Positions 11,158 through 26,817 of a stretch of DNA of 32,000 bases are shown piece after piece. Position numbers and translations under genes: made by a program. Positions within the stretch are counted from its first letter, which is position 1, and every line of letters starts with the position of its first letter. The notes beneath the pieces are model-generated. The model did not search any database and was not told the origin of the DNA. It worked only from the letters and a program-made list of their open reading frames with translations. Origin of the DNA: Candidatus Saccharimonadota bacterium (GTDB lineage Archaea; Nanohalarchaeota; Nanosalinia; Nanosalinales; Nanosalinaceae); the NCBI RefSeq assembly GCF_029232205.1, contig NZ_CP107255.1, positions 300,001 through 332,000 of the forward strand, read 5' to 3'.

Positions 11158-11161
11158 AATA

Positions 11162-13764: not shown

Positions 13765-13789
13765 ACGCAGAGGTCCCGGGTTCGATTCC

Positions 13790-13800
13790 CGGCTTTCCCA
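13790..13800 (+). repeat. Putative attL core (CGGCTTTCCCA; last 11 nt of tRNA-Met)
   Basis: Exact 11-bp match to 26807-26817 in the same orientation. Confidence 0.5.
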
Positions 13801-13892
13801 ATACTTCCCATGTTCGGGATTGAGGGCTATTCTTCTAGTTAATACATTCTTTGACAGCAAAATTTATACGATTTAACTGTCAATTTAACTGT

Positions 13893-14033
13893 ATGAAAGT
13901 TCAGGAGAAGCCAAACGGCCAGTTTGTGCTCACTATACCGAAGCGTCTTGCCAATGCGAAGAACTGGGAAGATGGCCAGGAAGTCGAGTGGAAATTAAAT
14001 AGCAATGGAAAATTAGAACTTGAAGAGGATTAG
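13893..14033 (+). CDS. AbrB/SpoVT-family (swapped-hairpin barrel) DNA-binding protein, 46 aa
   Basis: MKVQEKPNGQFVLTIPKRLANAKNWEDGQEVEWKLNSNGKLELEED follows the AbrB/MazE/VapB-type pattern (xxxVTIPKxxxxxxxxxxGdxVev). I prefer the ATG at 13893 to the track start at 13851. A TATA-like TTTATA lies ~28 nt upstream, and the tandem 10-mer ATTTAACTGT occurs twice (13871-13880 and 13883-13892). Confidence 0.65.
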   Translation: MKVQEKPNGQFVLTIPKRLANAKNWEDGQEVEWKLNSNGKLELEED

Positions 14034-14039
14034 TAAAGA

Positions 14040-14405
14040 ATGGGGCTACCACAATTTACGGATGGTAATGTTAAAGCTAATATTAAACAGCTTGAGGCAA
14101 TTAGTGACCTACATTACATGCAGATGAAGTCCTCTGCCGTGGAAACGCTATTCACGCTGTCTTTGCTAACCTTTACTTGGCTTCAAGCTGTAATACAGTT
14201 CAATATTTTTGGAAGTAAACTACTTGTGATAGGTAGTATAACTATGGATCCTGGTACAGCTCTCTACTTGATCACAGTTTCTTGGGCCCTTCTTATCGGC
14301 GGAGAGAACCTAATACGTGTAACATTTCACGAAATAGGATTGGGCAACCAATACAACCGAGTGTACAGATGGATATTTGGAGGGCCTGAAGGTGATGAAG
14401 AATGA
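14040..14405 (+). CDS. Membrane protein, 121 aa (2 TM helices)
   Basis: Starts 6 nt after the AbrB-like gene. Hydrophobic segments are VETLFTLSLLTFTWLQAVIQFNIF and ALYLITVSWALLIGG. Confidence 0.5.
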   Translation: MGLPQFTDGNVKANIKQLEAISDLHYMQMKSSAVETLFTLSLLTFTWLQAVIQFNIFGSKLLVIGSITMDPGTALYLITVSWALLIGGENLIRVTFHEIGLGNQYNRVYRWIFGGPEGDEE

Positions 14406-14527
14406 TTCCCCCAGCTATTTCAGGCAATATAGGTCTAGTAGCAGGAATATTTATTGCTATAATAGTAGTGATAGCAGTGGCTATTAGAAATTATCTCCAA
14501 GAGAAGCCTGATAGAGGTAAAGCCTGA
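14402..14527 (+). CDS. Small single-TM peptide, 41 aa
   Basis: Below the ORF-track size cutoff. Its ATG overlaps the upstream stop (ATGA). Sequence: MIPPAISGNIGLVAGIFIAIIVVIAVAIRNYLQEKPDRGKA. Confidence 0.4.
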   Translation: MIPPAISGNIGLVAGIFIAIIVVIAVAIRNYLQEKPDRGKA

Positions 14528-14748
14528 ATTCTTCACTTCTCGTATTATTTTTCTATGTCTACGTGTGTGAAGGAGCTGGTGGATCCGCATTCTGTGCAGG
14601 ATTCTGTGCCTTCGTTCAGTTCTTCAGCTTTGACGAAAGAATCCATTCTTTTCCACATTCTTCGCAGACTACACGATACTTGTTGAAGCCGTCTCCCCCA
14701 TCCTCTCCCATACAGAAATTTTATTGGTCGGAGAGTTATCTGTTTTTC

Positions 14749-14943
14749 GGCGTTCGAACGCCGTTCAAGTTTTTGTTCAACAGACGTTCAGTGAACGTTC
14801 AATAGCCCAGGGGTATTCAACCCCGTTTCCAGCTAGTGGAGAGGTTTTCTAGTTAAAGGCCCTTCAAAACACCTTTAATTGAACGTTCAAACCCTGCTTT
14901 AACACCTTTAATTAAAGCTTTAACCGAACGTTCAGTGAACGTT
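14749..14943. repeat. Cluster of GAACGTTC-core palindromes and direct repeats (candidate origin, iteron or operator array of the element)
   Basis: Palindromes: GGCGTTCGAACGCC (14749-14762), ACGTTCAGTGAACGT (14784-14798), TTGAACGTTCAA (14879-14890), CTTTAATTAAAG (14906-14917) and AACGTTCAGTGAACGTT (14927-14943). The direct repeat AACACCTTTAATT occurs at 14868-14880 and 14901-14913. The octamer GAACGTTC occurs 3 times within 150 bp. Confidence 0.65.
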
Positions 14944-15068
14944 GTATCTCTGTACACTAGAGGTTCTGAACGATATTTCCTAATACTGCGTCTACGCACT
15001 ACAGATAGATTTCTGGCAGCACTGTGTGTGTTCATGAAAGGCCGTATAGTTCACTAAAAACGGAATCA

Positions 15069-15635
15069 CTACTCCTCGTCTTCTTCCCAGGTAACATCTT
15101 CCATGCTCGAGCGTATACTTTCTAATAGCTCCGTTTCTTTCTTCTCCATCAAGTCATCTAATTCTTTGCTGAAAATCACTGAAAGTGCTGAATCGCCCTC
15201 TTTAACGCTCTTCGGGATATGGATAAAGGTCCAAGAGTCTATGGCATCGTAATGTCGGAGCGTATCCAGATAGTCTATACATTTTCTAAGAAAGTCGTAG
15301 GTGCTATCAGACCAATGTTTATTGAAGCCACACTCTATGACGATCCGGTTTTCCTCATCAAGTACGTCTGGATGTAATCCTGCTAATCTACCCTCTATTT
15401 TTACTTCCTCATAACATTCCTTGTAAGTTGGATATAACTTCTGTTGATTGACTAAGAGTTTGATTGCTGCAATAACCAGTTTCCCGTGTAGTTCTTTGCC
15501 TCCTTGCTCTCTTACTGCTCCTTTCGCCCACCTACTATTGGGCTCTTCTAGAGGGCCTATATCGAATTTCTCGACTTGCTTAATATGTTCTTCTTTATCA
15601 AATTCCTCAAGCAAATCACGGGGATTTACAGTCAT
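15069..15635 (-). CDS. Hypothetical protein, 188 aa (possible PD-(D/E)xK nuclease fold, weak)
   Basis: Clean ORF. The segment GLHPDVLDEENRIVIECGFNK resembles a PD...E.K-type restriction-endonuclease-like core, but the Lys position is non-canonical. Confidence 0.5.
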   Translation of the reverse strand: MTVNPRDLLEEFDKEEHIKQVEKFDIGPLEEPNSRWAKGAVREQGGKELHGKLVIAAIKLLVNQQKLYPTYKECYEEVKIEGRLAGLHPDVLDEENRIVIECGFNKHWSDSTYDFLRKCIDYLDTLRHYDAIDSWTFIHIPKSVKEGDSALSVIFSKELDDLMEKKETELLESIRSSMEDVTWEEDEE

Positions 15636-15725
15636 AGTACCTGTATAGTATGTATTTAGGGCTTAGAGCTTAACTATCTTCCGCAGCTCCACCATTTGTT
15701 TAAACATAAATGCGATATTTAGCCT

Positions 15726-16379
15726 ATGGAACGACAGAAGGCTGCATTAATCTTCTTCGCAGCAATATCTTTTGCATTGTTATTTACTACGGGCCTATTT
15801 GCAAATGCATGGGCCGAATCAACAAAGAACGTTGAAAACCTAAATAGTACTCTGCAAAGTAAAGAATCTTCTTTACAACAAAAGACCTCCACTATAGATA
15901 AACTAAACCAGACATTGCTGATAAAACAGCAGAATATCTCCGACCTAGAACGTACTAAGAGTAATCTGGAATCCGAAGTTGATATGCTCCGTGATGAACT
16001 GGATAAGGCCAAAGTATGGACAACTGCTCCTGAGCCTTATTCTACAGGCGGAGGAGAATATGTAGTCCCTTTCACTATATACAATTATGGTAAAGAAACT
16101 GCTAGTAACGTTATTGCCGAGGTAGCTGTATACGAAAGCTCAAGTTCGACAGAGCCTAAAGAAGTGAAAAGTGTTCAAGTAGGGAATACTGCAGGCAACT
16201 CCATGAAAGAGGTGGAATATAATATCGACTTTGATTCAACCATAGATGATGACGATGTCGCCTCTGTATACGTAGTTAGTTGTGGAAACTGTGAAATTCT
16301 CTGGAAAAATATTCCTAGCTTATCTTACTTTGAGGACTCTAGCTCCGAAGCTGCTGAAGCTGGAGCTTCTAGCACTTGA
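15726..16379 (+). CDS. Secreted or membrane-anchored protein, 217 aa: signal/TM, coiled coil, then a beta-rich domain
   Basis: The N-terminal hydrophobic segment ALIFFAAISFALLFTTGLFANAWA is followed by a coiled-coil stretch. A beta-sandwich-like region (YVVPFTIYNYGKETASNVIAEVAVYE) follows. Confidence 0.55.
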   Translation: MERQKAALIFFAAISFALLFTTGLFANAWAESTKNVENLNSTLQSKESSLQQKTSTIDKLNQTLLIKQQNISDLERTKSNLESEVDMLRDELDKAKVWTTAPEPYSTGGGEYVVPFTIYNYGKETASNVIAEVAVYESSSSTEPKEVKSVQVGNTAGNSMKEVEYNIDFDSTIDDDDVASVYVVSCGNCEILWKNIPSLSYFEDSSSEAAEAGASST

Positions 16380-16433
16380 ACAATAAACCGCCTATTAGAA
16401 GAAAATTTCAATCACACAACGGGATAAGAATCT

Positions 16434-16700
16434 ATGACTGAGGACCTGGAAGAGCTGCGTGAGAAGAGAGATGAACTGGAAGAAAAAATGCTGCAGAAGC
16501 TTGAAGAGGATCAAGACAGTGGAAAGTTAATAACTCGTGAAGAGTTTGTTGACGAGCTGGTAAAAGCAGCTTATGCAGGCTTTAACTTTGATAAAGGGAG
16601 TTATGACTGGGAGCAGCTAGAACCTGTTCTTAGAGAGACGTTCCGGAAGGTTTATGTGGAAGGCCTATCCCAGGAAGAGTTAGAAGAACTTACTGATTGA
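16434..16700 (+). CDS. Hypothetical acidic protein, 88 aa
   Basis: Clean ORF with no recognised motif. Confidence 0.45.
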   Translation: MTEDLEELREKRDELEEKMLQKLEEDQDSGKLITREEFVDELVKAAYAGFNFDKGSYDWEQLEPVLRETFRKVYVEGLSQEELEELTD

Positions 16701-16830
16701 ATTCTTCCGCGAAGTCTTCTTCTAGCTTTTTTCTTACCCATTGGGAGAAGTTAAATCCTCCAGGCCTTTCTTTCAGGTTGGAGATAGCTTCTATATGCTC
16801 TTCTTTCAGAGTAACTATCTTGTCTTTCAT
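16690..16830 (-). CDS. Ribbon-helix-helix (CopG/Arc-like) protein, 46 aa
   Basis: I prefer the internal ATG (complement of 16828-16830): MKDKIVTLKEEHIEAISNLKERPGGFNFSQWVRKKLEE. This gives a beta strand followed by two helices. Confidence 0.5.
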   Translation of the reverse strand: MKDKIVTLKEEHIEAISNLKERPGGFNFSQWVRKKLEEDFAEEFNQ

Positions 16831-16834
16831 GTAG

Positions 16835-16892
16835 CATATGTTGGCATAGGTTGGTTTTAAATACAGGTGTGGAACATATGTCAACATAGGTT
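16835..16892. promoter_or_regulatory. Divergent promoter region with two 18-bp direct repeats (putative RHH operator)
   Basis: CATATGTTGGCATAGGTT (16835-16852) and CATATGTCAACATAGGTT (16875-16892) match at 15 of 18 positions and are 40 bp apart. They lie between the two divergent RHH-like genes. Confidence 0.45.
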
Positions 16893-16898
16893 AAAATT

Positions 16899-17120
16899 AT
16901 GAAGGACGACCACCCGACCAAGAGTAGACCGTCCTCCAAAACAGTATTGGAGGGCCAACAGCATAAAACTGTCGAAAAGCTGACCGAAAAAAAATTCTCG
17001 CTACCAGAGGCTCAGGCCGAAGTCATCGAAGAGACGGCACGTAAAATGAGTGTAACGGAGTCGCAGGCCTTGAACTACCTTCTAGCAAGATACACAAAAG
17101 GTGAATGGGAAGCTCTATGA
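16899..17120 (+). CDS. Ribbon-helix-helix-like protein, 73 aa
   Basis: The C-terminal KKFSLPEAQAEVIEETARKMSVTESQALNYLLARY fits the RHH strand-helix-helix pattern. Confidence 0.45.
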   Translation: MKDDHPTKSRPSSKTVLEGQQHKTVEKLTEKKFSLPEAQAEVIEETARKMSVTESQALNYLLARYTKGEWEAL

Positions 17121-17800
17121 ATGCCTCTCTAAAAAAATCTAAGAATCTAGTGGAAAGCTGGAAACCAGAACAGTCGGGGAAGAAAACTGTGGATCAGGCA
17201 ATTCTAGAGATAGCGGACTTCGAGTCTTGGAAAAGTCCTAAGGAGATGTATAGGGAATACAGGTACTACAAGAAAGATCCTGTCCACGTACAGACATTCT
17301 CCAAATACCTCAACGAGCTTGAATCTATAGGAGAATTGGAGGCTAGAGGCAGAGGTAGCTCTAGAGAATACAGAAAAGCAGACAAACCTGTGCAAGAAAC
17401 AAGAGAAGATCACAGCTCTCCACTAAGTGAGGGTCTCCCGGACTTCGTAGAAAAAAGAATCCAGAAAGAAGTGGAGAAGAGAGTCCAGGAAGAGATCGAC
17501 AACATCAGAAATGACATAGAGCAGAGAATCTTGATAGAGAGAAAACAGAACAGTGAATCTCAAGAAGAAAGCAACGCCCCGGAAGACAAAGATGATCCCA
17601 TCAATCCTCCAGAATACATTCATCAACTGTTAACTGAAGCTGAAGAAGAACTCAGCGCTTCAAAAATAGGAGAAAAATATAGAGAAAGAACAGAATATAA
17701 TCCAGCACAGAGAACAATCAGGAGATACCTTAAAAACCTAGTAGACAGAGGTCTAGTGGAGAAGGAAGGCAGTAAAAAAGGCACAACATACAAGGCCTGA
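17105..17800 (+). CDS. DNA-binding protein with two winged-helix-like domains, ~227-231 aa
   Basis: The likely start is the in-frame ATG at 17117, overlapping the upstream stop (ATGA). The C-terminal wHTH is IGEKYRERTEYNPAQRTIRRYLKNLVDRGLVEKEGSKKGTTYKA. A similar N-terminal module reads VQTFSKYLNELESIGELEARGRGSSREYRKA. Confidence 0.55.
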   Translation: MGSSMNASLKKSKNLVESWKPEQSGKKTVDQAILEIADFESWKSPKEMYREYRYYKKDPVHVQTFSKYLNELESIGELEARGRGSSREYRKADKPVQETREDHSSPLSEGLPDFVEKRIQKEVEKRVQEEIDNIRNDIEQRILIERKQNSESQEESNAPEDKDDPINPPEYIHQLLTEAEEELSASKIGEKYRERTEYNPAQRTIRRYLKNLVDRGLVEKEGSKKGTTYKA

Positions 17801-17991
17801 TTTAAACCCTTTTTCTTGTCTCTTTCTTCCTTGCTTGGGCAAGGGTTAGGCCCGAAGATGTAGGCAGAAACAATTCTGTATTGCAGGTAATATAGGTTCT
17901 CCTCTATTCATACTTTCTTATTCTATTTGTGGGTGCCTGTAGGAACCAAAAAGTTTAACAGGCCTCTATATAGGTGTTGTATCGAAGAAAG

Positions 17992-20532
17992 ATGGGATTA
18001 TACGACAGGTTGACTCCAGGCGATCAGAATAATATAGATGAGCAGAAAGAACAGGTAGAGGAAGAGCAGCAATCAGCTGAAGAAGAATTTGTAGACAGAT
18101 ACAATAATGATACTTCTACAGATAATTCCAGCAGCGACAGCTCTGACAATACTTCTGAAGCAACAGAAGATTTCTTGGACGACTACGGTCCTAGCGGAGA
18201 TGGTAGCTTCGGAAGCGATGACCTAGATTCTGTCAACGACAGCACAGATAACTCAACAGACAGCTCTGACAATGCTACTCCTGAAGAAGAGTTCGTAAAA
18301 AATTACGGTCAGAGCAGCAAGAAGAAAGATAAGAAAAAGAAGAAAGGTAGCAGCTCCGAAAACCCTTTAGTCGATGAACTGCAGAGGCAAAGAAACGTAA
18401 TCGACAGTGAAGAAGCAGATATGAACCTGGAAAATCCTTCGGCTCTTGGACCGCAGACTGTAACGCGCTTAGGCACAGGAAACATTCCTCCCGCACAGAT
18501 CTCTAACGAAGAATACAGATCGCCAGAACAAACAGTGGTAGACCGAGAATATGGCTCAGGCACAAACCTAAAAGGACAAAGCTATCTAAACCAGGATCAG
18601 ACTGCAGAAGATGTAACCGCAAAAAGCCTGATTCAAGGCGCTCAAGACGTAATGATTGATCCAGGACAGACTGGCCAGAACACCTATGAATCTGTTTCAA
18701 ACCTCGACCTACCTGGAGAAATGGAAGAAACCTATGCCAAAGGCGCAGGAACTATAACAGCTGCCGGAGCCCAGCTATTCAACACCGTACCAAGTATCTT
18801 TCAGACAACAGTGGCTGCAAGCCAAAACCCGTCAGGCACAGCTTCAAAGCTTTATCAAGGAACTAAACGTGCAGGCCCGAACCTTGAAGGTCTTTCTAGG
18901 AATACAGGAAGCAAAGAATACTTTGAAAGCCAGGCAGGTATACTAAACCTTGTTGCAGGGGCTGGAGCAAGTAGCCTAGCAAGAAAAGGAAGTCTCAGAG
19001 GAGTAACTACTGACGAAGGCCTGACAGATCTTGTGAAAAATCCTGTAAGGCCTGGTGACGATGCTACTGTCGAAGCAGAGATACAGGAAACATTCCAGAG
19101 CAAACCCGATCAGCTGAGTCCTGAAGCTCAGAAAGCATTATCTCAAATGGATTTATCTGGAACCAAGGGTCCAGCAGGTTCAGGGAGACGTCTAGTGGTT
19201 GAAGGAGATGGAGAAAACACTTACGCCGAAAAGCAGGATTACTTGATGACAAAAGTACAACAGAATGGCAGAGAGTTTATTGTAGTAGGAAGAACTGCGT
19301 CTCAAGGCCGGGGTAGTGATGGAGAAAGCGAGGGTCTTGTAGCAAGTGAATCACTTATTATCAGCGAGAACGGAGAATTAGTCGATCAAAGCAAGCAGAA
19401 ACCTACTAAAAAACTGTATGACTTCCAGACAGAAGTTACTGATAGTTCACAGGATGTTGTTGAAGGGGTAGGTCCAAGAGGGGATGAAAAAATAGTAAAG
19501 ACGGACTCGGTTGGAGAGGGTACTGTAGCGGGAGAAGACTTTATCTTCAGAGATGAATCACAGAGATTCTCAAGTCCTGGAACTGATGCAGACCTGCTGC
19601 AATCTAAAAGTGTTACGGGTACCGATAACTCGAAAAGCAGCATAGGAAGCAAAGGACCTGTAATTAACAGAGGCCTGTTTGAAGATGAAGACGTAAAAAC
19701 TGCAGATATAGATGGTGAGAGCACTGATTTCGATGCTGAGAAGCTGCAGGATTCTATAGAGTCAATCTTTGACGATCAAGACAGCGACAGGAGTGAGGTA
19801 GGTAACGTAATTGACAGGGATTCTGACGGGCAATCTGATAGTGATTCAGGCCCCCAAAAACTGAAGATAGAATCAAGTAACAAGCAGGAAGACAGAACCG
19901 GGATAGGAACTGACGCTGTAAACCAGAAAGCCTTTGAGGAGAACGTAAAAGATGCTGCTAGTTTTGAAGATACTGGTGCTGATAGTGTTTTCGGGCCTAC
20001 CGAGGCAGCTGTAGGAACCAATGTACTGGGCGAGGCTGGAAGCTCTTTATCTCAAGGTCAAGACCAGGATACTTTCGGCCTTGTAGACAAAGAAGATAGC
20101 CAGCAGAAGGGCAGAGACAAGATTTTAGAAGATGATAAAACTAGAGGCAAGCCTGATGTAGCGAACAAAAATGCTTTAGATGTAGGGCAAGATGTGGGGC
20201 AGGGTCAAGACTTTGACACCAATCTAGATTCGAGCCAGGAAACAGACTCCATATTAGTGAGAGGTCTAACCAATACAGATACAAACTTCAGAGAAGGAGA
20301 TGGAAACAAGCGTAGAGATCTTAACCTAGAAGGGGATGACGATGACGACAAAAGATTGTTTTCCAGATTACTTGGAGGGAAAAAGAAAACAAAGTATAGA
20401 GGCAGTGTAGGCGCAGAAGTACTCGGTATCACAGCAGAGGAAGCTCCAGGAAGATCTGCAGCACAGAACCCTCTCAACCTTAGACCTGTAGTAGAGGACT
20501 CTACAAAGAAAGATGAAGAAAATATTTTGTAG
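17992..20532 (+). CDS. Large acidic low-complexity protein, 846 aa, function unknown
   Basis: An uninterrupted 2.5-kb ORF; I prefer the ATG at 17992 to the GTG at 17974. It is rich in D/S/E/G/T/N/Q/K, has no Cys, and has no TM helix or signal peptide. The N-terminal region contains three E-[ED]-F-[VL]-x-x-Y-[GN] motifs separated by S/D/N/T linkers. Confidence 0.7.
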   Translation: MGLYDRLTPGDQNNIDEQKEQVEEEQQSAEEEFVDRYNNDTSTDNSSSDSSDNTSEATEDFLDDYGPSGDGSFGSDDLDSVNDSTDNSTDSSDNATPEEEFVKNYGQSSKKKDKKKKKGSSSENPLVDELQRQRNVIDSEEADMNLENPSALGPQTVTRLGTGNIPPAQISNEEYRSPEQTVVDREYGSGTNLKGQSYLNQDQTAEDVTAKSLIQGAQDVMIDPGQTGQNTYESVSNLDLPGEMEETYAKGAGTITAAGAQLFNTVPSIFQTTVAASQNPSGTASKLYQGTKRAGPNLEGLSRNTGSKEYFESQAGILNLVAGAGASSLARKGSLRGVTTDEGLTDLVKNPVRPGDDATVEAEIQETFQSKPDQLSPEAQKALSQMDLSGTKGPAGSGRRLVVEGDGENTYAEKQDYLMTKVQQNGREFIVVGRTASQGRGSDGESEGLVASESLIISENGELVDQSKQKPTKKLYDFQTEVTDSSQDVVEGVGPRGDEKIVKTDSVGEGTVAGEDFIFRDESQRFSSPGTDADLLQSKSVTGTDNSKSSIGSKGPVINRGLFEDEDVKTADIDGESTDFDAEKLQDSIESIFDDQDSDRSEVGNVIDRDSDGQSDSDSGPQKLKIESSNKQEDRTGIGTDAVNQKAFEENVKDAASFEDTGADSVFGPTEAAVGTNVLGEAGSSLSQGQDQDTFGLVDKEDSQQKGRDKILEDDKTRGKPDVANKNALDVGQDVGQGQDFDTNLDSSQETDSILVRGLTNTDTNFREGDGNKRRDLNLEGDDDDDKRLFSRLLGGKKKTKYRGSVGAEVLGITAEEAPGRSAAQNPLNLRPVVEDSTKKDEENIL

Positions 20533-20549
20533 AAAGCTAATCTCTCCCC

Positions 20550-20575
20550 CAGTCATATACTGACTGCTTGTTTTT
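20550..20575 (+). terminator. Hairpin plus T-run downstream of the 846-aa gene
   Basis: CAGTCA-tatac-TGACTG is followed by CTTGTTTTT, 18 nt after the stop codon. Confidence 0.4.
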
Positions 20576-20913
20576 AGAAGCGTAAGAAGCATTCCATTTC
20601 TGCCAAAGATCGGTGGACGCTTTCATAACCAGATGCGCCCCTGTATAGATCCGGCTTAAAACTAGTGGAAACTAAGATAGAGTTCCTGTCTTTCTATGAG
20701 ATTGACAGAGTAATTGCTTAGTTCAAAGTTAATAATTTCTTGTCGGAAGCTGCTCCTTCGTGTGTCCCGCACGTACAAAGACCTCCTCATAGCTATTATA
20801 TAGAGAAGAGGGGAGGGGCAGGGGGCGGTGACGAACGAACCTAGTAGTCAGGTTCGATCCATCGACTAACACAGTCTATCTATAACAGGTATAGATTATC
20901 AACACTCCTCCCT

Positions 20914-21207
20914 CTACCTGCCGTCATCGTCTCCCTGTCTTTCGAATAAAGGCGACACCATGTCCACATTCAGAGCCTCTTTGTAGTCATCAATATCTTC
21001 GCTCAACAGCTTCCAAGCAGCTTCAGATCGATCAGCCGCTAAACGTTTATCTTCAAGAGTCTTCATGTGCTTTTGAATTTGTCTCAACTCTTCCGGGTCG
21101 CTGGTAATGTTCGTAGGCTTCACCCACAATCTTTTGTGATCGTGATAGATTTTATCGGCTATTCTATTCCAAAGTTTTTCTCCAGGATTCAAACCTAATT
21201 CTGACAC
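20914..21207 (-). CDS. Hypothetical protein, 97 aa
   Basis: Clean ORF and the last gene of the leftward operon. No motif recognised. Confidence 0.45.
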   Translation of the reverse strand: MSELGLNPGEKLWNRIADKIYHDHKRLWVKPTNITSDPEELRQIQKHMKTLEDKRLAADRSEAAWKLLSEDIDDYKEALNVDMVSPLFERQGDDDGR

Positions 21208-21279
21208 TACCGCATCACCTTGTAGTTAAACACTACTGCATTTATTGTAGAATTGCTCATTATTTCAGCCTTCTGTTGT

Positions 21280-21510
21280 TTATCTGTACCAGTGGTTCTT
21301 GTCTTCGAGTCCTACAGCAGATTCATCTGACTGCATCTGTATCTGGTAATCTCTGTTGATGGTTTGCTGCAGTTCCTCCAGCACTAGATCTAGGTCTTTC
21401 TTTCTTCTGATTTTGTAATCATAGTAGAGCTTGTCTCGAAGCGTCTCCACTATATCAACAAGCTTTTCTTGGTCTACAATCTCATTGACATCTTCTGGTT
21501 CTTCTGACAT
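21280..21510 (-). CDS. Hypothetical acidic protein, 76 aa
   Basis: Clean ORF starting 10 nt downstream of the wHTH gene. Confidence 0.45.
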   Translation of the reverse strand: MSEEPEDVNEIVDQEKLVDIVETLRDKLYYDYKIRRKKDLDLVLEELQQTINRDYQIQMQSDESAVGLEDKNHWYR

Positions 21511-21520
21511 GAGTAATACC

Positions 21521-21799
21521 TCAGTAAGCAGGCACGTTCATCCCGTCAAGGACTACACGACCTTTCTCTGTGATTTTGTAGTATGTACGGCCTTCTTCCT
21601 CTCCAGTATTCTCTACGAGGCCTTCAGCTTGTAGCTTTTCTACATGATAGAGAACTGTTTGATGCGCTACATCTAGTTCGTCTTTCATGCTGCCGATATG
21701 ATCCTGGTTCTGCAGCAGGTCCAGAGTCTGTTTCGTAGTCTTGCCGCCTACTTTTCTCCTGATTCTGTCGTAATCTTCCGACTGGTCTACCTCAGGCAT
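21521..21799 (-). CDS. ArsR-like winged-helix transcription regulator, 92 aa
   Basis: I prefer the ATG at the complement of 21797-21799 (MPEVDQSEDY...). The HTH-wing is LDVAHQTVLYHVEKLQAEGLVENTGEEEGRTYYKITEKG. Confidence 0.65.
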   Translation of the reverse strand: MPEVDQSEDYDRIRRKVGGKTTKQTLDLLQNQDHIGSMKDELDVAHQTVLYHVEKLQAEGLVENTGEEEGRTYYKITEKGRVVLDGMNVPAY

Positions 21800-21979
21800 A
21801 CAACACCGCCTCTTTCTAAACACTCTCTAATTGTTCTATCAAGCGATTCTGTACTCTTTCTAACCGGTTGATTCGCTGTGGTTCGATAAAGAAATGTCAA
21901 GGCTGTCGATGGGGTATTACCCCTTTGTGTGTTATCATAACACGCATAGGGTAGGAAACCCCCCGACATGCCTGACACA

Positions 21980-23509
21980 TTAAATCGCATAGTCCTTCAC
22001 CTCGATATTCATGAAGCACATAGCTCTTCCCCCGTTCTCTACCATAGCTTTCTCTTTCCGCATATCAGGATGAGAAGCAGCTTGGCTCACAAACTGGTTT
22101 CTAGGTACTGGAGTTTCTAGTTTTTTCTCACACCATAGTTCATAGGCCTCGTAGACGTCTGAAGTTCTGATATTCTTCGCATCTTCAGTTTTTACTCTTA
22201 TCTGATCTGAGATAAACCGCTGAGTTGATGTTCCGAACTTGTCCCAGGCTTTCTTTATTTCGTACTCTGTCATTTCTTTGGAAAACCTGTTTTGTTCTTC
22301 TAATCTTTCCAGACCTTCGATAGCCCAGTTAAGAAGCCAGGACATGTTTTTTTCGGTAGTAAGTTTTTCTACTAGGTTTCTTTCCTTGTCTTCTGGATCT
22401 ATCCTGGTTGTTGCCATGACTGTCTTGAATCTGTTGTAGTATGCGTCTGTTGCTGAGCTGTCGTCTGGCGCGTTGTTGCTTGCTATCATGAAGTTGGTTT
22501 TTGGTTGGAACTCGTAGCCTTTCTCGCCTTTAGGATCGGCGTGTAGTGGTTCTTTGCTTATTGCTTTCTTTACTCGTGATTTCCTTCTGATTTCTTTGTC
22601 GTCCATATCCATGTCGAAGTTGACTAGGGAATCTCTGAGTTTGTCGATGTGGAATGCTCGATCCATACCGAGCTGTGGGAAGCTCATGCTGGTTGTATTG
22701 CTGCCTTCAAAGAGTTGCTCAATAGTTTTCAGGAGTGTTGACTTTCCTGTATCAGTATATCCCAGGATAAGTAAGGCCTTCTCGAACTTGTCTGAAGGCC
22801 ATGTAAGGCAGTATCCTAGAAATTCTTGGATTACTTTTACTCCTTCTTCTGTGTCGATTGTTTTCTCTATAAATTCCTTGATTCTGTCTGGTTCTGCGTC
22901 AGGGTTGTAGACGGCGTTGATGCTGTTTAGTGCTAGATCTTCCTTGTTGGCAGGCCTTGTTTCTTTAGTCTCTAGATCCAGGATATTCCCGTCTTTGAGG
23001 AGTATCTTTTTCCGGTCTAAACCCATTTCCTTGAATTCGGTGTATTTGTGGTGGTCTTTGAAGGATTGCTTGAACTGTCTGAGGAAGTGGTTCGTGTAGT
23101 CCTTGCCCATCTCTTTGTTGGCCTGTTTCTTGATTAGCTCGAAGTCTACTTCTTCCCATCTGCGTGTCTCCTGGTCGTACTTATAGAAAAGAGTCTTGGA
23201 GTCGATAACTACAGGCCTGATATTTCTTTCCTCTACTAGGAAATCTGCGTAGGCCTGAGCTTTCTCTGTTAGTTCTGCTCCTGCGTGCTCTTGCATTGGG
23301 AAACTCTTCGGGCCTGATTCTTCCTCAAGATCTTCTTTCAATGCTTCCAGATGACTTTTGATTTCTGGATTGCTGCTCTTCAATGCTGAGATGAAGTTTT
23401 CATCTGTAAGTTGGCTTTCATCCGCGTTTCTGATTGTCTCTGCGATATTTTCGTTCCCGGCCTTCTCTATTTCTCTGGCGTAGTATGTTACTGGGCTTTC
23501 TACAGTCAT
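21980..23509 (-). CDS. D5/P4-family SF3 helicase (phage/plasmid primase C-terminal-type NTPase)
   Basis: 509 aa. Motifs: Walker A ILGYTDTGKSTLL, Walker B-like VNFDMDMDD, and the family-typical downstream block KKAISKEPLHADPKGEKGYEFQPKTNFMIASNNAP...DAYYNRF. No AEP primase motifs were seen in the N-terminal part. Confidence 0.8.
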   Translation of the reverse strand: MTVESPVTYYAREIEKAGNENIAETIRNADESQLTDENFISALKSSNPEIKSHLEALKEDLEEESGPKSFPMQEHAGAELTEKAQAYADFLVEERNIRPVVIDSKTLFYKYDQETRRWEEVDFELIKKQANKEMGKDYTNHFLRQFKQSFKDHHKYTEFKEMGLDRKKILLKDGNILDLETKETRPANKEDLALNSINAVYNPDAEPDRIKEFIEKTIDTEEGVKVIQEFLGYCLTWPSDKFEKALLILGYTDTGKSTLLKTIEQLFEGSNTTSMSFPQLGMDRAFHIDKLRDSLVNFDMDMDDKEIRRKSRVKKAISKEPLHADPKGEKGYEFQPKTNFMIASNNAPDDSSATDAYYNRFKTVMATTRIDPEDKERNLVEKLTTEKNMSWLLNWAIEGLERLEEQNRFSKEMTEYEIKKAWDKFGTSTQRFISDQIRVKTEDAKNIRTSDVYEAYELWCEKKLETPVPRNQFVSQAASHPDMRKEKAMVENGGRAMCFMNIEVKDYAI

Positions 23510-23742
23510 TGAATCACCTTCTGTGGTGGCTCTGTAATTACTGCTTTTTGTGAGGCGAGAACTCTTTTGGCCTGGAGAAACTTTTTCCTGTCATAATCAG
23601 ACCATTCAGATTCTACAGCCTCCTTCAGAGTTAGGTAGTCGCCTAACTGCCTTTTCTGCTTTTCTGATAGCTCTTTGTTCCAGTCTTGAATGGTAGAGAA
23701 AGTTACTATCTCTTCAGGGTAGTGTAGAACTTGCTTAATCAC
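23506..23742 (-). CDS. Hypothetical protein, 78 aa
   Basis: Its ORF overlaps both neighbours by 4-8 nt, consistent with operon packing. Confidence 0.45.
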   Translation of the reverse strand: MIKQVLHYPEEIVTFSTIQDWNKELSEKQKRQLGDYLTLKEAVESEWSDYDRKKFLQAKRVLASQKAVITEPPQKVIQ

Positions 23743-24010
23743 TTACTAGGTTCACCTCTTCGAGTATCCTGGTTCTCTCTCCTGTTAGGTCGTAAATATT
23801 GAGCTGGTATTTCGCCGGGATGTAGAGCGCATATCCTTTCGGTGGTGTTCCTTCGAGGATGAACAGCCTGCCTTCTACTCGCCCATCAAAACGGTCGAAG
23901 TCTATCTCAATGAGCTTCCGGCCGGTTTTCCTCTTTCTTTCGAGTCTGCTCCGTATGTCTTCCTTGTCTATCTCTGTTACTCCTCTTTCTCTAAGTCTCA
24001 CGTCTTTCAC
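23735..24010 (-). CDS. Hypothetical protein, 91 aa
   Basis: An overlapping-start/stop operon member. No motif recognised. Confidence 0.45.
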   Translation of the reverse strand: MKDVRLRERGVTEIDKEDIRSRLERKRKTGRKLIEIDFDRFDGRVEGRLFILEGTPPKGYALYIPAKYQLNIYDLTGERTRILEEVNLVSD

Positions 24011-24221
24011 CTTTGCTTTCAGGACTTTCTAGTTCTTCTACATCTATATTACCGTCTAGAAGTTCTCTCATTACTTCTGAACGGCTTAATTCTTCTTCGA
24101 AATTATCTAGAGACTCTACTTGATCCTTGAAAAGAAAGAAGGAGGCTTGTGCTTTGTCTCTGTCCTCTGATTTTACAGTTTCTTTGACAGAAGAATTTAT
24201 ATTTCGCTTAAGCTGATACAT
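23991..24221 (-). CDS. Possible ribbon-helix-helix protein, 76 aa
   Basis: ASFFLFKDQVESLDNFEEELSRSEVMRELLDG fits the RHH pattern weakly. Confidence 0.4.
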   Translation of the reverse strand: MYQLKRNINSSVKETVKSEDRDKAQASFFLFKDQVESLDNFEEELSRSEVMRELLDGNIDVEELESPESKGERRET

Positions 24222-24327
24222 TGTTAGAGGTATTGCTTTGCTTGCTGGAGCTGGTGACTCCAGTGTTTTCTGATTTTTCTTCTTTTATCTTCGAAATTTC
24301 GTCTTCTATAATTTTGTCGACATCCAT
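24208..24327 (-). CDS. Possible small ORF, 39 aa
   Basis: Below the track cutoff. Its ATG lies 1 nt after the stop of the upstream RHH gene, and its stop overlaps the start of 23991-24221. Sequence: MDVDKIIEDEISKIKEEKSENTGVTSSSKQSNTSNNVSA. The only support is operon packing. Confidence 0.3.
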   Translation of the reverse strand: MDVDKIIEDEISKIKEEKSENTGVTSSSKQSNTSNNVSA

Positions 24328-24328
24328 G

Positions 24329-24454
24329 CTAATCACACAGTCCATCTGCAAGGCATGACCTGACAATCTCTGCCTGGCTTCTACCGGTTTTTTCGGATTC
24401 TTCTTCTATGTGCTCTTTCAGCTCTTCTGGCACCGAAAATGTCCATCTATTCAT
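24329..24454 (-). CDS. Ribbon-helix-helix (CopG/MetJ/Arc) protein, 41 aa; first gene of the leftward operon
   Basis: Below the track cutoff. My translation is MNRWTFSVPEELKEHIEEESEKTGRSQAEIVRSCLADGLCD, a textbook RHH pattern (beta strand TFSVPEEL plus two helices). Confidence 0.6.
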   Translation of the reverse strand: MNRWTFSVPEELKEHIEEESEKTGRSQAEIVRSCLADGLCD

Positions 24455-24582
24455 CACTACCACCCCTATATAGAGGCCTTATAAACGTTTTGTAATCACG
24501 AGTGTTTACACAATCTTCTCTGTTCATGTAATCAAGGTTGATTGCGATATGTTTTAAATCTTCCCATCATCCTTGATTGCAT

Positions 24583-25206
24583 ATGGTCAGGGACTATGAG
24601 GAAGAAGTAATGACGTCTCTTCTGGCGTATAAAATTTTGCGTTCTATTAATAGGAAAGGCCAAGCATACCCTACAGAGATAGCAGAAGATCTTGATACTT
24701 CTTACCAATCTGTAAACAATTATATGAAAGGCCTAAGAAAGAGAAAAATAGTAGAAAAGAGCAAAGAGGAAGGGAAGAAAAGATACTATTCTATTTCTCC
24801 AGAAGGAATCTTTAACACTTGGAAGCAGTTATGGCTTGAAGATTTAGATAAGGAAACAGTTTCTAGCCTAAAGAGAGCAGTGCAAAGCGATAAGGCCCAA
24901 AAACATATCGAAGATATAGAAAATAACGTAGGTGTTCTGGTATCATCATATACTGCAGGCTACTTAGAGGTAAATGAGGAAGGAAATCTTCAGGACATGT
25001 TATATGACGACTTCTGGACGTCTCTACAACCGTATCCTACCAATTCAGAACAGTGGCTATCTACTTTTTGCCATCTAATGGATATACTTCGAAAGACAGA
25101 AAAAGTCGGAAAAGGACCTATGATAGCGGCTATTGAAAAAACAAGAGAATCTGAAGAGCAGATTGGGGACTTTAAATTTTTCTCAGATTTGGAGAAAGAG
25201 AATTAA
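24583..25206 (+). CDS. Winged-helix transcription regulator with a C-terminal extension, ~207 aa
   Basis: LLAYKILRSINRKGQAYPTEIAEDLDTSYQSVNNYMKGLRKRKIVEKSKEEGKKRYYSISPEG is an ArsR/MarR-like wHTH. I prefer the ATG at 24583 to the TTG at 24577. Confidence 0.6.
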   Translation: MVRDYEEEVMTSLLAYKILRSINRKGQAYPTEIAEDLDTSYQSVNNYMKGLRKRKIVEKSKEEGKKRYYSISPEGIFNTWKQLWLEDLDKETVSSLKRAVQSDKAQKHIEDIENNVGVLVSSYTAGYLEVNEEGNLQDMLYDDFWTSLQPYPTNSEQWLSTFCHLMDILRKTEKVGKGPMIAAIEKTRESEEQIGDFKFFSDLEKEN

Positions 25207-26714
25207 AGGAAGCCTTTCTCTTTCATACGTTTTCGAGTACTATCGCGGATACTCTCCTCTATCTGTTCTTCATTTAACCCAAACTCCTCTGTCAACGTCT
25301 CTATAACTTCGCTCTTTACTTCGTGTGTTGTCTTGTTCATTTCTGAAACTGTGTCAGCATTCTTTGCAGGATTTTCTATATTCTTCATGCTGTTTTGGCT
25401 AGCAATATCCTCCAAAGCCGCTTCCATTACTTCATCAGGGCTGTTGTGAGCCTTTAAACTGTTTTCAAGTTCTCCTTCACAGTTCTTGCAGTAACTCCAT
25501 AGAGGAGAGGCGTACTCTCCGCACTCTGGACAGTCGTAGGGTTTAAGGTTATCTCTACTGAATTTCTTTTCTGATTTATTTAGGTTTTCTCCATAATCCT
25601 CTCTCACTCCTGCTAGGAGGCTCTCCTGCATGAGCTCGATATAGTATTTCGGAGCATCGCTATTCTTGCTCCATCCGAAAAACCCTCTCAAGAAGTTCTC
25701 GTTTTTATCCTTCGATGCCCAATACAGCGCTCTTCCGTCTCTCCAGAACCAGTGTGGCTTTTTCGTTATCCTCTCTGGTATGTCTGACCTGTCTATACAT
25801 CTCTGCAAGGCCCTTCTCATGGCGTCATCATCCAGGGGTTTGTACTTCTTCACTGCTTCAGAATTCTTCCCTTGCCAGGTGCAGCTCTCACATTCATACC
25901 GTCTTTCACTATAGTTTCTGGATCTACTTTTCGCATTAAGCTGGTCCCCACAGTTGGGGCAGAAATTTCTTGGGTTCTGATGCCTGAAAACAGGATCTGA
26001 CATGTCAGGATTTGTTTCTTCGTACAGTTTCTTCATCAGAGGCATCCCTACACGGACAGGAACTGTCCTCTCTCCTGACTTACCTCTGAGAGTTACGTGC
26101 ATCTCCTGGTCCTTGAACTTGATCTGGTTCCAGCTAAGAGGCTCCGGGTACTTGTGCGTGTCAGAGGTCTTCGCTAGCTCACCTATTCTTGCACCCGTGG
26201 CCCAGCCAAACACAACCATTGCTTGATCGCGCAGACTGTTTGCTGCTTCGGAAACTTTTATTACGTGCTCAGGCGTTGGTCTGGTATCTGTATCGATATT
26301 GTGCGTGATATTGGTGTGTACTTCGAGATCTTCCAGGAGTTCCTCGCCGTCAATATCTTCAACATATCCGCGTCCTTCTTTCTTGATGAAACTATTGTAG
26401 AACACGCTAATAGTCTCCATCAGTTTCTCTTTGCTGTAGTCGCTATATTTCTCTCCATCGTTCTTCCTTACTTCATCTTGGTTTATCTTGCCTACTAAGG
26501 CCTCTAGGTCCTTATATTTGGCTTTGTCTAGTTTAAAATCTATATGTTCTGCTAGACTATTGAAGCAGGAAGCATTCCTTTGCAGGGTTTCGCCTCCTAC
26601 GTCTGTTGATTTTCTCTTGCGGAAGAAATCGTTTAGAACTTCTTTATTGTGCTCTGAGAGTTCGGGATTTTGCTGAAGTTTCTGGTTGGTCTGTTTTAGA
26701 GCTTGGAAGGGCAT
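25203..26714 (-). CDS. int: Tyrosine recombinase/integrase (intact; not split by integration) with two zinc-ribbon insertions
   Basis: 503 aa with an N-terminal SAM-like domain. Catalytic residues in order: Arg (GWATGARIGE), the Lys hairpin (LRGKSGERTVPV), His..Arg (KPHWFWRDGRA), and Trp...Tyr (GWSKNSDAPKYYIE). There are two CxxC...CxxC modules: CPNCG..CESC and CPECG..CKNC. Confidence 0.8.
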   Translation of the reverse strand: MPFQALKQTNQKLQQNPELSEHNKEVLNDFFRKRKSTDVGGETLQRNASCFNSLAEHIDFKLDKAKYKDLEALVGKINQDEVRKNDGEKYSDYSKEKLMETISVFYNSFIKKEGRGYVEDIDGEELLEDLEVHTNITHNIDTDTRPTPEHVIKVSEAANSLRDQAMVVFGWATGARIGELAKTSDTHKYPEPLSWNQIKFKDQEMHVTLRGKSGERTVPVRVGMPLMKKLYEETNPDMSDPVFRHQNPRNFCPNCGDQLNAKSRSRNYSERRYECESCTWQGKNSEAVKKYKPLDDDAMRRALQRCIDRSDIPERITKKPHWFWRDGRALYWASKDKNENFLRGFFGWSKNSDAPKYYIELMQESLLAGVREDYGENLNKSEKKFSRDNLKPYDCPECGEYASPLWSYCKNCEGELENSLKAHNSPDEVMEAALEDIASQNSMKNIENPAKNADTVSEMNKTTHEVKSEVIETLTEEFGLNEEQIEESIRDSTRKRMKEKGFL

Positions 26715-26806
26715 GGTTTTGCTTTACACCTCTATAAAGCCTAGAAGCGACTAAGCCCTTCAAAAGAGTATCTGTTAAGTCGATACTGAACATGGGAGCC
26801 AATGGG

Positions 26807-26817
26807 CGGCTTTCCCA
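26807..26817 (+). repeat. Putative attR core (CGGCTTTCCCA)
   Basis: Exact 11-bp copy of the tRNA-Met 3' end, 93 nt upstream of the integrase start codon. It is followed by the hairpin CTTCAC-gtat-GTGAAG. Confidence 0.5.

Follow-up and report, generated by a model that had tools for sequence, protein, structure and literature searches.

The stretch of DNA analyzed here (hereafter the window) comprises 32 kb of the genome of Ca. Nanohalovita haloferacivicina BNXNv (CP107255). Within it, a segment of approximately 13 kb at positions 13790 to 26817 is bounded by the 3' end of a tRNA-Met gene and by a second copy of the same sequence. Rfam gave two tRNA matches in the window, namely, a tRNA-Val at 13475–13548 and a second match at 13659–13800. 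The latter was missed by ARAGORN in its default mode, and the intron mode identified it as a tRNA-Met with an intron of 69 nt. The last 11 nt of this gene, CGGCTTTCCCA, occur exactly twice in the window, both times on the + strand. The features that delimit the segment are as follows.

13659–13800, + strand: host tRNA-Met gene (anticodon CAT), the integration target (Rfam RF00005, 60.5 bits; ARAGORN -i)
13790–13800, + strand: attL copy of the 11-nt core CGGCTTTCCCA, the 3' end of tRNA-Met
13797–13823, + strand: right (P') arm of attP, containing TCCCATGTTC at 13806–13815
25203–26714, − strand: intact tyrosine integrase of 503 aa
26780–26806, + strand: left (P) arm of attP, containing GAACATGGGA at 26788–26797
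26807–26817, + strand: attR copy of the 11-nt core CGGCTTTCCCA

Boundaries of the Element and the Empty Site

Just inside the two core copies lies a 10-nt inverted repeat (TCCCATGTTC and GAACATGGGA), of which each half is single-copy in the window and which widens imperfectly to the two 27-nt arms, with 74% complementarity. The tRNA-Met gene stays intact after integration, with a direct repeat of its 3' part at both ends, and the predicted circle with one core copy is 13,017 bp long. The GC content is 42.7% in the element compared with 44.2% and 45.0% in its flanks. By our estimate, an 11-mer shared between the tRNA gene and 32 kb is unremarkable alone, and the weight of the repeat as evidence therefore rests on its position and on comparative data. 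The right-end interval is 228 nt, from the integrase start at 26714 to a conserved host gene at 26943–27110, and the chance expectation of a fixed 11-mer in this interval is approximately 4e-5.

GTDB species genomes were scanned with the glutamyl-tRNA synthetase (GluRS; 27195–28997, − strand) that flanks the element, and three nanohaloarchaeal loci were returned. In the complete chromosome of Nanohaloarchaea archaeon M3_22 (CP046106.1), whose GluRS is 82% identical, the order PPase, tRNA-Val, intron-bearing tRNA-Met, 55-aa gene, and GluRS is uninterrupted by any 13-kb insert, and the spacing from tRNA-Met to GluRS is only 318 nt. The same tRNA-Met also adjoins GluRS in the metagenome-assembled genome L003. 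The window without 13801–26817 was collinear with M3_22 in an alignment, and the host 55-aa gene (26943–27110) is 80% identical there. Homology to M3_22 restarts at 26818, immediately behind the second core's CCCA (TCCTTCACGTATGTGAAGGCTG in the window, TACTTTTCAAAGGCCG in M3_22), at a resolution limited by the divergence of the two genomes (synteny at 82% identity) and by a 53-nt indel that lies 23 nt beyond the core on its right. The hexamer ATACTT beside the tRNA at attL was considered as the ancestral downstream flank and rejected, as the attR flank fits M3_22 better.

The segment is an element integrated at tRNA-Met, bounded by the two 11-nt core copies and flanked internally by the arms of its att site, and M3_22 carries the corresponding empty site. 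An earlier reading of the locus, made from the letters alone (hereafter the sequence-only reading), had proposed this integration with the same ends, the recurrence of the last 11 nt of tRNA-Met in the same orientation, a 10-bp inverted repeat inside each core copy, a chance match on the order of 1e-4 or less, and a nanohaloarchaeon-like host. All of these proposals held. The empty site that it had suggested looking for is present in M3_22 and uses the 11-bp boundary within the synteny at 82% identity, and four related repeat-bounded elements, described below, agree with the assignment.

Several features of the surrounding DNA were also observed. A perfect 7-bp hairpin, CCTTCAC-gtat-GTGAAGG, occupies 26818–26840 directly after the attR core, and the adjacent 53-nt stretch at 26840–26892 is missing from M3_22. 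The tRNA-Met(CAT) genes of the window (13659–13800), L002 (11986–12130), and L003 (12025–12180) have introns of 69 to 83 nt. This intron sits 1 nt 3' of the canonical site and is kept in the three nanohaloarchaeal genomes with a variable middle. Introns of 54 to 84 nt are also present in other integrase-adjoining tRNAs, namely, Ile-TAT, Arg-CCT, and Gly-CCC.

The Integrase Is a Divergent Tyrosine Recombinase

In an alignment of 20 family sequences, the catalytic residues R176, H321, R325, W348, and Y358 of the integrase were invariant and K212 was found in at least 90% of the sequences. The protein contains two zinc ribbons, one (C252/C255/C275/C278) between the β-hairpin Lys and the HxxxR box and the other (C395/C398/C409/C412) after the Tyr, and most of these eight cysteines were also conserved in the alignment. 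The integrase profile matched XerA from P. abyssi (4a8e, 1.5e-6) with the catalytic boxes aligned and a one-residue insertion in the H–R box. The AlphaFold2 (AF2) model had a mean predicted local distance difference test (pLDDT) score of 77, with the catalytic core above 90, and Foldseek matched it with XerA, IntI, Cre, XerH, and lambda Int at a probability of 1.00 (E 4e-7 to 1e-4) over 350 to 410 columns. The score for Pfam PF00589 (Phage_integrase) was 22.1 bits, which is below the cut-off of 27.1, and most homologues have a precomputed PF00589 match; no Phage_int_SAM match was found in Pfam. The integrase is thus a divergent member of the tyrosine recombinase superfamily.

The open reading frame (ORF) is full length compared with its homologues, and 93 nt separate its start from the upstream core. 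Because the gene is intact and the core is outside it, the enzyme is a classical integrase and not one of the SSV type, as the sequence-only reading had stated. Among 50,697 phage and archaeal-virus records (hereafter the phage records; tblastn, E < 1e-5), the only match was the integrase of Geoglobus acetivorans pleomorphic virus 1 (GacPV1), with 24% identity over 55% of the query. In IMG/VR, a scan with the integrase alignment gave one distant match and a single-protein scan gave none.

Related Elements and the Predicted Position of the Crossover

Related loci were fetched by exact-protein look-ups and a metagenome scan and are referred to by our locus numbers. For the integrase of the window itself and for the flanking PPase, such look-ups returned no entry. 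The integrase has approximately 50 homologues with 40 to 59% identity. The majority are metagenome proteins with no source name, and the named ones are nanohaloarchaeal save for one labeled Aenigmatarchaeota. A tRNA gene (Pro, Ala, or Ile) lies 60 to 110 nt upstream of the integrase gene on the same strand in 12 of 14 loci, although three of these 12 tRNAs are truncated by the contig start. In loci with both ends available, the final 11 nt of the tRNA return as a direct repeat, which bounds an element of 11.1 kb in L019 (GGGCCGGTCCA) and one of 3.9 kb in L021 (CGGGTGGACCA).

A second integrase family, 25 to 27% identical to the first, is tied to the same helicase backbone as the element of the window and shows the same att behavior. 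It is represented by L012 (a contig of JGI 3300042552), with the repeat TGGCTTGGGCG at tRNA-Asn and a length of 10.65 kb, and by L010 (Nanohaloarchaea archaeon H01, WMEN01000002.1), with the repeat ATCCCTCTCGG at tRNA-Thr, a length of 14.1 kb, and the identity shifted 4 nt inward. Like the element of the window, both have 11-nt tRNA-derived repeats with flanking inverted repeats, and their integrase and AbrB genes diverge from attP in the circle. Their integrases are shorter (421 to 426 aa), and their intact tRNA lies at the integrase end. By contrast, the integrase of the window adjoins the partial core copy (attR), and the core is inverted relative to the integrase gene; in the circular form, the integrase and AbrB genes would still diverge from attP, as in L012.

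In the integrated copies, the flanking inverted repeats are divided between the two junctions. In L018 (660–710) and L020 (approximately 800–850), GGGCCGGTCCA is found upstream of the integrase gene with both arms and with no tRNA body, and the arms of L018, TACTAAATTAA and TTAATTTAGTA, are perfect. These two sites are apparently unintegrated attP, which indicates that free forms of such elements exist. No terminal overlap was found in the two contigs.

A computed scan placed the best dyad axis on nt 4 of the core in the window, with complementarity at 17 of 23 positions there, and also in L019, L018, L020, L012, and L021; in L010, the axis was on nt 8 of the shifted core. All seven sites thus share one axis position in the tRNA, namely, its eighth nucleotide counted from the 3' end. 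This agreement implies a 7-nt overlap, CGGCTTT, at core nt 1 to 7 (approximately tRNA nt 63 to 69), which would be flanked by integrase-binding half-sites and would contain the crossover. The 11-nt identity would then consist of the 7-nt overlap and 4 nt on one side. The P' arm and the tRNA-Pro elements show a weak likeness (CCC-N6-GGGATT), which was set aside and given no weight.

The cargo of the relatives differs widely, from a plasmid-like MCM replicon and a PolB element to a defense island and a possible virus. L018 carries an MCM helicase, and L007 has PolB with a Cdc6-like ATPase, adjacent to a type I restriction-modification (RM) system. L019 (LFCJ01003588.1, 1–11367), a complete element, encodes a type ISP RM enzyme and DUF2326 with no replication gene and is a mobile defense island. 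In L020, the integrase relative is beside a Zot-like ATPase. These comparisons show that a coherent nanohaloarchaeal integrase/att family, with an apparently fixed crossover position, moves very different cargo. The sequence-only reading had suggested a candidate new family of elements; the family stands as one of integrases and att sites and not as one defined by the gene set of this element. The integrase family may be undescribed, although a description elsewhere is possible.

Replication Operon and Candidate Regulatory DNA

The right half of the element contains a leftward gene cluster and a divergent regulator gene, and two kinds of repeated noncoding sequence are present in the element.

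20914–24454, − strand: cluster of nine ORFs, with several overlapping start and stop codons
24329–24454, − strand: 41-aa ribbon-helix-helix (RHH) protein heading the cluster (RHH_1, 27.5 bits, cut-off 20.5)
21980–23509, − strand: superfamily 3 (SF3) helicase of the D5/P4 primase C-terminal type, 509 aa (Walker A GYTDTGKST)
21521–21823, − strand: 100-aa protein of the winged helix-turn-helix (wHTH) type
24577–25206, + strand: MarR/TrmB-like winged-helix protein of 209 aa (Pfam TrmB 1.4e-5, MarR)
14750–15060, no strand: noncoding block with iteron-like repeats and palindromes
17947–17989, + strand: promoter/operator-like 43-nt element, copy 1, upstream of the gene for an 846-aa protein, containing AGGCCTCTATATAGG
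24450–24492, − strand: promoter/operator-like 43-nt element, copy 2, heading the RHH–helicase operon

The cluster encodes, in order, the RHH protein, proteins of 52, 76, 91, and 78 aa, the helicase, the 100-aa wHTH protein, and proteins of 76 and 97 aa. The ORFs and family matches confirmed a leftward nine-gene operon headed by an RHH gene and containing a D5/P4 SF3 helicase, as had been read from the sequence. The helicase matched Pfam DUF5906 (2.2e-15), D5_N, and Pox_D5 as well as TIGR01613 (124.8 bits, cut-off 108.7), its motifs are intact, and it is the sole NTPase and P-loop protein of the element. It has no Prim-Pol domain, and PHROG "DNA primase" profiles matched its helicase part only, from approximately position 155 to 400 onward. 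A single-protein IMG/VR scan with the helicase gave no relatives. Its sequence is 100% identical to that of a Ca. Nanohalovita haloferacivicina protein. Conservation of the 78-aa gene goes along with that of the helicase in L010–L013. The 209-aa wHTH gene diverges from the operon, and its homologues lie beside the integrase or the helicase in L010 and L018 (tblastn).

In the block at 14750–15060, GAACGTTC occurs three times compared with an expectation of 0.29, a count reached in none of 100 shuffles; ACGTTCAGTGAACGTT occurs twice, and CACCTTTAATT is also repeated. The repeats make this block a candidate replication origin or regulator-binding region. The two 43-nt copies are 81% identical and have the same orientation relative to each gene, and the 15-mer AGGCCTCTATATAGG occurs in the window only at these two sites (0.07 expected). 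Because this promoter/operator-like element is common to both, the replication operon and the 846-aa gene are probably co-regulated. The 43-nt copies also appear to contain a TATA-like box approximately 20 nt before the start codons.

Genes of the Left Half

The remaining genes lie between attL and the replication operon.

13893–14033 (start possible at 13851), + strand: AbrB/MazE (SpoVT-AbrB) small DNA-binding protein (Pfam PF04014, 25.0 bits, cut-off 24.7; phrog_661)
14040–14405, + strand: 121-aa protein (g02) with moderately hydrophobic segments
14402–14527, + strand: 41-aa single-pass membrane protein (hydrophobic window at residues 1–34)
14548–14711, − strand: frameshift-split small zinc-ribbon ORF (CxxC in 14619–14711, CxxC in the other frame in 14548–14637)
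15069–15635, − strand: 188-aa acidic protein
15726–16379, + strand: 217-aa protein with an N-terminal signal or anchor (hydrophobic window at residues 4–28), a coiled coil, and a C-terminal β-rich domain
16434–17800, both strands: four small genes, as in the next four lines
16434–16700, + strand: 88-aa gene
16690–16887, − strand: 65-aa gene with homologues in L012 and L013
16899–17120, + strand: 73-aa gene
17105–17800, + strand: 231-aa protein with two winged-helix domains (Pfam HTH_12 3e-7, Cdc6_C)
17992–20532, + strand: 846-aa acidic, mostly disordered protein

The AbrB gene is the first gene inside attL, and its homologues are equally att-adjacent in L010 and L012 (tblastn). The 121-aa protein had no homologue in the family scans (Pfam, PHROGs, and NCBIfam) or in the phage records. 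It has two moderately hydrophobic segments, but no 19-aa window reaches a Kyte–Doolittle value of 1.6, and its classification as a clear membrane protein was dropped since it is below the transmembrane hydropathy threshold. This threshold was passed only by the 41-aa membrane protein, whose gene start overlaps the stop of the 121-aa gene, and by the N-terminus of the 217-aa protein. The membrane and secreted proteins of the sequence-only reading were accordingly retained for these two and withdrawn for the 121-aa protein. Its small RHH, wHTH, and AbrB regulators were recovered as well, with Pfam support for RHH limited to the 41/44-aa protein at the head of the operon.

The split zinc-ribbon ORF reads MGEDGGDGFNKYRVVCEECGKEW... 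in one frame and ...FVKAEELNEGTESCTECGSTSSFTHVDIEK in another, and it is either a pseudogene or the product of a sequencing or assembly error. The 188-aa protein gave no family match and no PDB sequence match; a PD...E motif in it may point to a nuclease-like fold. The 217-aa protein is an ORFan that found only itself among 5.8 billion clusters, and a PDB search gave coiled-coil noise only.

The 846-aa protein was modeled with a mean pLDDT of 39 from a shallow alignment, with 677 of 846 residues below 50, in agreement with the disorder noted from the sequence; a central β-hairpin domain at approximately residues 400 to 550 reached a pLDDT of 58 to 76. Foldseek gave no match to this low-confidence model at E < 1e-3 in BFVD or PDB. 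When 1.84 billion representatives were searched exhaustively with HMMER, the protein had six relatives apart from itself. Its C-terminal motif, SVGAEVLGITAE..PGR..QNPLNLRP, belongs to a family consensus of F..SVGAE(V/L)LG(I/V)TAE..PGR..Q(N/D)P.NLRP, whereas the N-terminus is shared with one of the six relatives and the middles are variable. No member of the family was found in IMG/VR by single-protein and alignment-based scans or in JGI metagenomes by an alignment-based scan, and tblastn of the 846-aa protein against the phage records gave no match. The element proteins are acidic, like those of the host. PADLOC detected no defense system among the cargo, and the remaining genes of the element are lineage-specific cargo.

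Nature of the Element

A backbone consisting of an att-adjacent AbrB gene, a MarR-like wHTH gene, the 78-aa gene, and the 509-aa helicase (55 to 56% identity) recurs in L010–L013. The cargo of these loci is SRAP, an MmeI-type RM system, and DUF8203 and includes none of the ORFans of the window. Because the backbone is common to elements with non-viral cargo, an integrative plasmid is favored over a provirus. We consider it reasonably likely that the element is an intact, site-specifically integrated plasmid-like element, that is, an integrative plasmid or cryptic integrated element, presumably capable of autonomous replication. The sequence-only reading had left integrative plasmid and provirus side by side; the former is now preferred, and the latter is assigned a lower probability.

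Its statement that no virion or conjugation gene is recognizable was borne out by Pfam, PHROGs, NCBIfam, PADLOC, tblastn against the phage records, and Foldseek on the largest ORF. In particular, no ORF matched a capsid, portal, terminase, spike, matrix, morphogenesis-ATPase, or VirB4/VirD4 family in Pfam, PHROGs, or NCBIfam. These scans included HK97 and double-jelly-roll capsids, packaging ATPases, and portals, and neither VirB4/TraC-like nor VirD4/TraG-like ATPases were matched in Pfam or NCBIfam.

Several observations weigh against a plasmid-like element. The circular junction of the element itself, which the sequence-only reading had suggested looking for, was not found in an IMG/VR scan, and its current activity is presumptive; unintegrated attP sites were found for its relatives L018 and L020. 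The element encodes no primase or recognizable initiator, and its origin is only guessed from repeats. Approximately half of its coding capacity, including the 846-, 217-, 188-, and 121-aa proteins, is without detectable function or relatives. Archaeal virion proteins are often unrecognizable, so that the lack of matches is compatible with a virus. The closest helicase clade (approximately 70% identity) is on a 35-kb contig, L009, with a weak large-terminase match, and one integrase relative (L020) adjoins a Zot-like ATPase. The frameshifted zinc-ribbon ORF hints at some decay. Lastly, the integrase is on the opposite side of attP, relative to the core orientation, from all tRNA-adjacent relatives.

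The strongest of the alternatives is a provirus of an unrecognized small archaeal virus, pleomorphic or spindle-like, in which the ORFans would be structural proteins. The hydrophobic 121- and 41-aa proteins would then be structural, the secreted 217-aa protein would act as a spike, and the role of an adhesin or internal protein would fall to the 846-aa protein, with the integrase serving lysogeny and the helicase genome replication. A length of 13 kb is typical of pleolipoviruses, GacPV1 (13.4 kb) included, and the only match of the integrase in the phage records is the enzyme of this virus. Nanohaloarchaeal spindle viruses have been reported that share a tyrosine integrase and in which most genes cannot be annotated (10.1101/2025.02.15.638363). 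Moreover, the cluster of hydrophobic and secreted proteins adjoins attL, the termini of the 846-aa protein are conserved and its middle varies, a pattern often seen in host-interaction proteins, and the promoter element of its gene is also that of the replication operon. However, no VP3-like or VP4-like protein, morphogenesis ATPase, major capsid protein (MCP), or PHROG structural match was detected, and the SF3 helicase is the only NTPase. The helicase and the 846-aa protein have no relative in IMG/VR, the 846- and 121-aa proteins have none in the phage records, the integrase has distant matches only, and the model of the 846-aa protein matched no viral fold. The candidate structural genes are missing from L010 and L012, which share the backbone, and the 121-aa protein falls short of transmembrane hydropathy. 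Taken together, we regard a provirus as unlikely.

A related conjecture, to which we give similarly little credence, is that the ORFan half (the 121-, 41-, 217-, and 846-aa proteins) is a morphogenetic module. It would belong to temperate viruses of nanohaloarchaea that form a new family, or to a satellite hijacking such a virus, with the SVGAE...NLRP motif of the 846-aa protein acting as a docking peptide. The attP used by the zinc-ribbon integrase would then be unusually compact, with an 11-bp core, a 7-nt overlap fixed at tRNA nt 63 to 69, and bipartite inverted repeats.

Still less probable is a helper-dependent virus satellite or mobilizable integrative plasmid in the manner of pSSVx, pSSVi, and SRCE, which would rely on its own helicase module for replication and be packaged by a co-infecting nanohaloarchaeal virus. 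The combination of a plasmid-type replication module with small hydrophobic proteins would suit such an element, the helicase clade is also found on the probable virus contig L009, and nanohaloarchaeal satellites that join plasmid primase-helicases with spindle-virus MCP and ATPase genes have been described (10.1101/2025.02.15.638363). By contrast, no homology to an MCP or an AAA+ morphogenesis ATPase was found in PHROGs or the phage records, no helper virus is known for BNXNv, and SRCEs are circles of 2.7 to 9 kb that have not been reported as integrated.

There is little to recommend a fixed or decaying genomic island that integrated once and then lost excision and replication. The frameshifted zinc-ribbon ORF, the lack of a circular form in the IMG/VR junction scan, and the lack of an identified primase or initiator would fit such an island, but the 11-nt cores are identical, the 10-nt repeats of the two arms match perfectly, the integrase has its full length with all catalytic residues conserved, the helicase motifs are intact, and M3_22, the nearest complete genome that was available, lacks the element. 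Finally, the notion that no insertion occurred, with the 11-mer present by chance and 13 kb of ancestral DNA deleted in M3_22, can draw on our estimate that such an 11-mer is not rare alone and is effectively refuted by the expectation of 4e-5 matches in the 228-nt interval, the integrase gene 93 nt away, the same architecture in four further elements with repeat borders and in the free attP sites of L018 and L020, the agreement of the dyad axis in seven of seven sites, and the GC content of the element, which is lower than that of its flanks.

For the plasmid-like element that we prefer, the following cycle may be proposed. In the free circle, attP would lie in the spacer of approximately 190 nt between the divergent integrase and AbrB genes and would consist of the 11-nt core, identical to the 3' end of tRNA-Met(CAU), and the flanking inverted-repeat arms. 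The element's own tyrosine recombinase would synapse attP with the tRNA 3' end (attB) and exchange strands across the predicted 7-nt overlap CGGCTTT (tRNA nt 63 to 69), an insertion that would regenerate an intact tRNA. The same integrase would excise the element, perhaps aided by a small DNA-binding protein. The excised element would be maintained by the SF3 helicase of the RHH-led operon with priming from the host, and its origin is probably in the iteron-like block at 14750–15060.

Comparison with Known Elements

In plasmids of the pRN family, a small RHH (CopG-like) gene stands first in the operon for the replication protein, an SF3 helicase of the D5/P4 type. The RepA protein of pRN has an N-terminal prim-pol domain. 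The integrative relatives pSSVi and pXQ1 of Sulfolobales insert into tRNA genes by means of SSV-type integrases, which are split on integration, and some plasmids of this group are spindle-virus satellites. The element resembles these plasmids in having an RHH_1 gene upstream of the helicase in the same operon and in its tRNA integration, whereas its helicase lacks a prim-pol domain and its integrase stays intact. No sequence relation to the pRN family beyond the helicase superfamily was detectable.

Archaeal cryptic integrated elements (CIEs) were defined for Thaumarchaeota by Krupovic et al. in 2019 (PMC6563490). They are mostly shorter than 20 kb, have short direct repeats of down to 8 bp, and are often located at tRNA genes; the integrase is their sole universal gene, and replication genes, if any, are of the S3H (SF3 helicase), MCM, or RCRE (rolling-circle replication endonuclease) type (PMC6563490). 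RM systems and regulators of the RHH and wHTH types are among their cargo, and virus or conjugation hallmarks are absent (PMC6563490). The element has an integrase and att repeats and no hallmark gene of viruses, casposons, insertion sequences, or conjugation, and it can be assigned to this category. It differs from the thaumarchaeal CIEs in its host, which belongs to Nanohaloarchaeota (DPANN), in its distinct two-zinc-ribbon integrase family, in its helicase without a fused primase domain, and in its ORFan cargo. Given that cryptic integrated elements and pRN/pSSVi-like plasmids are well known in other archaea, the biology of the element is expected, and the surprise is modest.

The integrase shares the residues R-K-H-R-(H/W)-Y, the two-domain fold, an external att site, and tRNA 3' targets with classical archaeal tyrosine recombinases such as those of XerA, pNOB8, and SNJ2, and it differs from them in its two zinc-ribbon insertions and sub-cut-off Pfam score. 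Archaeal att identities of 8 to 13 bp are documented, such as the 11 bp of Msmi-Pro1 and the 13 bp of SNJ2, and the review of archaeal tyrosine recombinases that lists them covers neither DPANN nor zinc-ribbon integrases (PMC8371274). The SNJ2 type, defined by at least approximately 30% identity over 60% of the length to SNJ2 Int, is restricted to Halobacteria (PMC8371274). No such match was found among the 50,697 records at E < 1e-5, in which the presence of SNJ2 itself is unconfirmed, and the host here is a nanohaloarchaeon.

Among its closest counterparts, L010 and L012 share with the element the AbrB gene beside att, the MarR-like wHTH gene, the 78-aa gene, and the helicase, and they carry SRAP, the MmeI-type RM system, and DUF8203 in place of its 846-, 217-, and 188-aa ORFans. 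GacPV1 (BK065156.1) is likewise integrated and of similar size (13.4 kb), but sequence methods detected in the element no counterpart of its rolling-circle Rep, its VP3-like matrix protein, or its VP4-like fusion protein. VP3-like and VP4-like spike proteins of Pleolipoviridae gave no PHROG or Pfam match, with the sensitivity of sequence methods only. As for spindle viruses and SRCEs, the 121-aa protein has no homology to any MCP in PHROGs or the phage records, with Kyte–Doolittle values below 1.6, and the only P-loop protein, the SF3 helicase, is not an AAA+ morphogenesis ATPase. BNXNv and this element are absent from the text of the nanohaloarchaeal spindle-virus study (10.1101/2025.02.15.638363).

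The contig with the closest helicase clade, L009 (JGI 3300019927 Ga0207285_1000008, 35.3 kb), encodes a helicase relative with 69% identity directly after a separate Prim-Pol gene, a gene that the element lacks. The contig also carries an HNH protein, the weak large-terminase match, and a bacteriorhodopsin-family gene, and it probably represents a rhodopsin-bearing tailed virus of nanohaloarchaea. There is clearly an exchange of modules between plasmids and viruses.

Implications for BNXNv

BNXNv is one of the few cultivated DPANN archaea, and it is grown with Haloferax, a genus with established genetics. We know of no genetic tools for Nanohaloarchaeota. The element provides a complete recombination system, with an intact integrase, an attP of approximately 60 bp, an attB that is the 3' end of tRNA-Met, and a predicted 7-nt crossover, together with a candidate replicon. 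Integrative or shuttle vectors usually start from such integrase and att parts with a candidate replicon, and those of the element could seed genetic tools. If the ORFan half were indeed morphogenetic and the attP compact, this would be the first virus–host or integrase–att pair usable in a cultivated DPANN archaeon. The comparison adds an integrase/att family of nanohaloarchaea whose predicted crossover position in tRNA genes is fixed. The paper on the BNXNv genome found no genomic islands in it (PMC10266531), and the element corrects this record.

Other Genes of the Flanking Chromosome

To the left of the element, a host ABC ATPase gene at 7761–8747 is followed by two tandem pairs of paralogous membrane-protein genes at 8753–11974. 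These pairs, of 261/272 aa and 260/270 aa, are a duplicated ABC-2-type permease module of the host chromosome. To the right, the host GluRS (27195–28997, − strand) contains a long, strongly acidic insertion (...EETEEQEEEKEADEESEPQEDNEDKADEETEEEDQEEEK...) in the middle of its catalytic domain.

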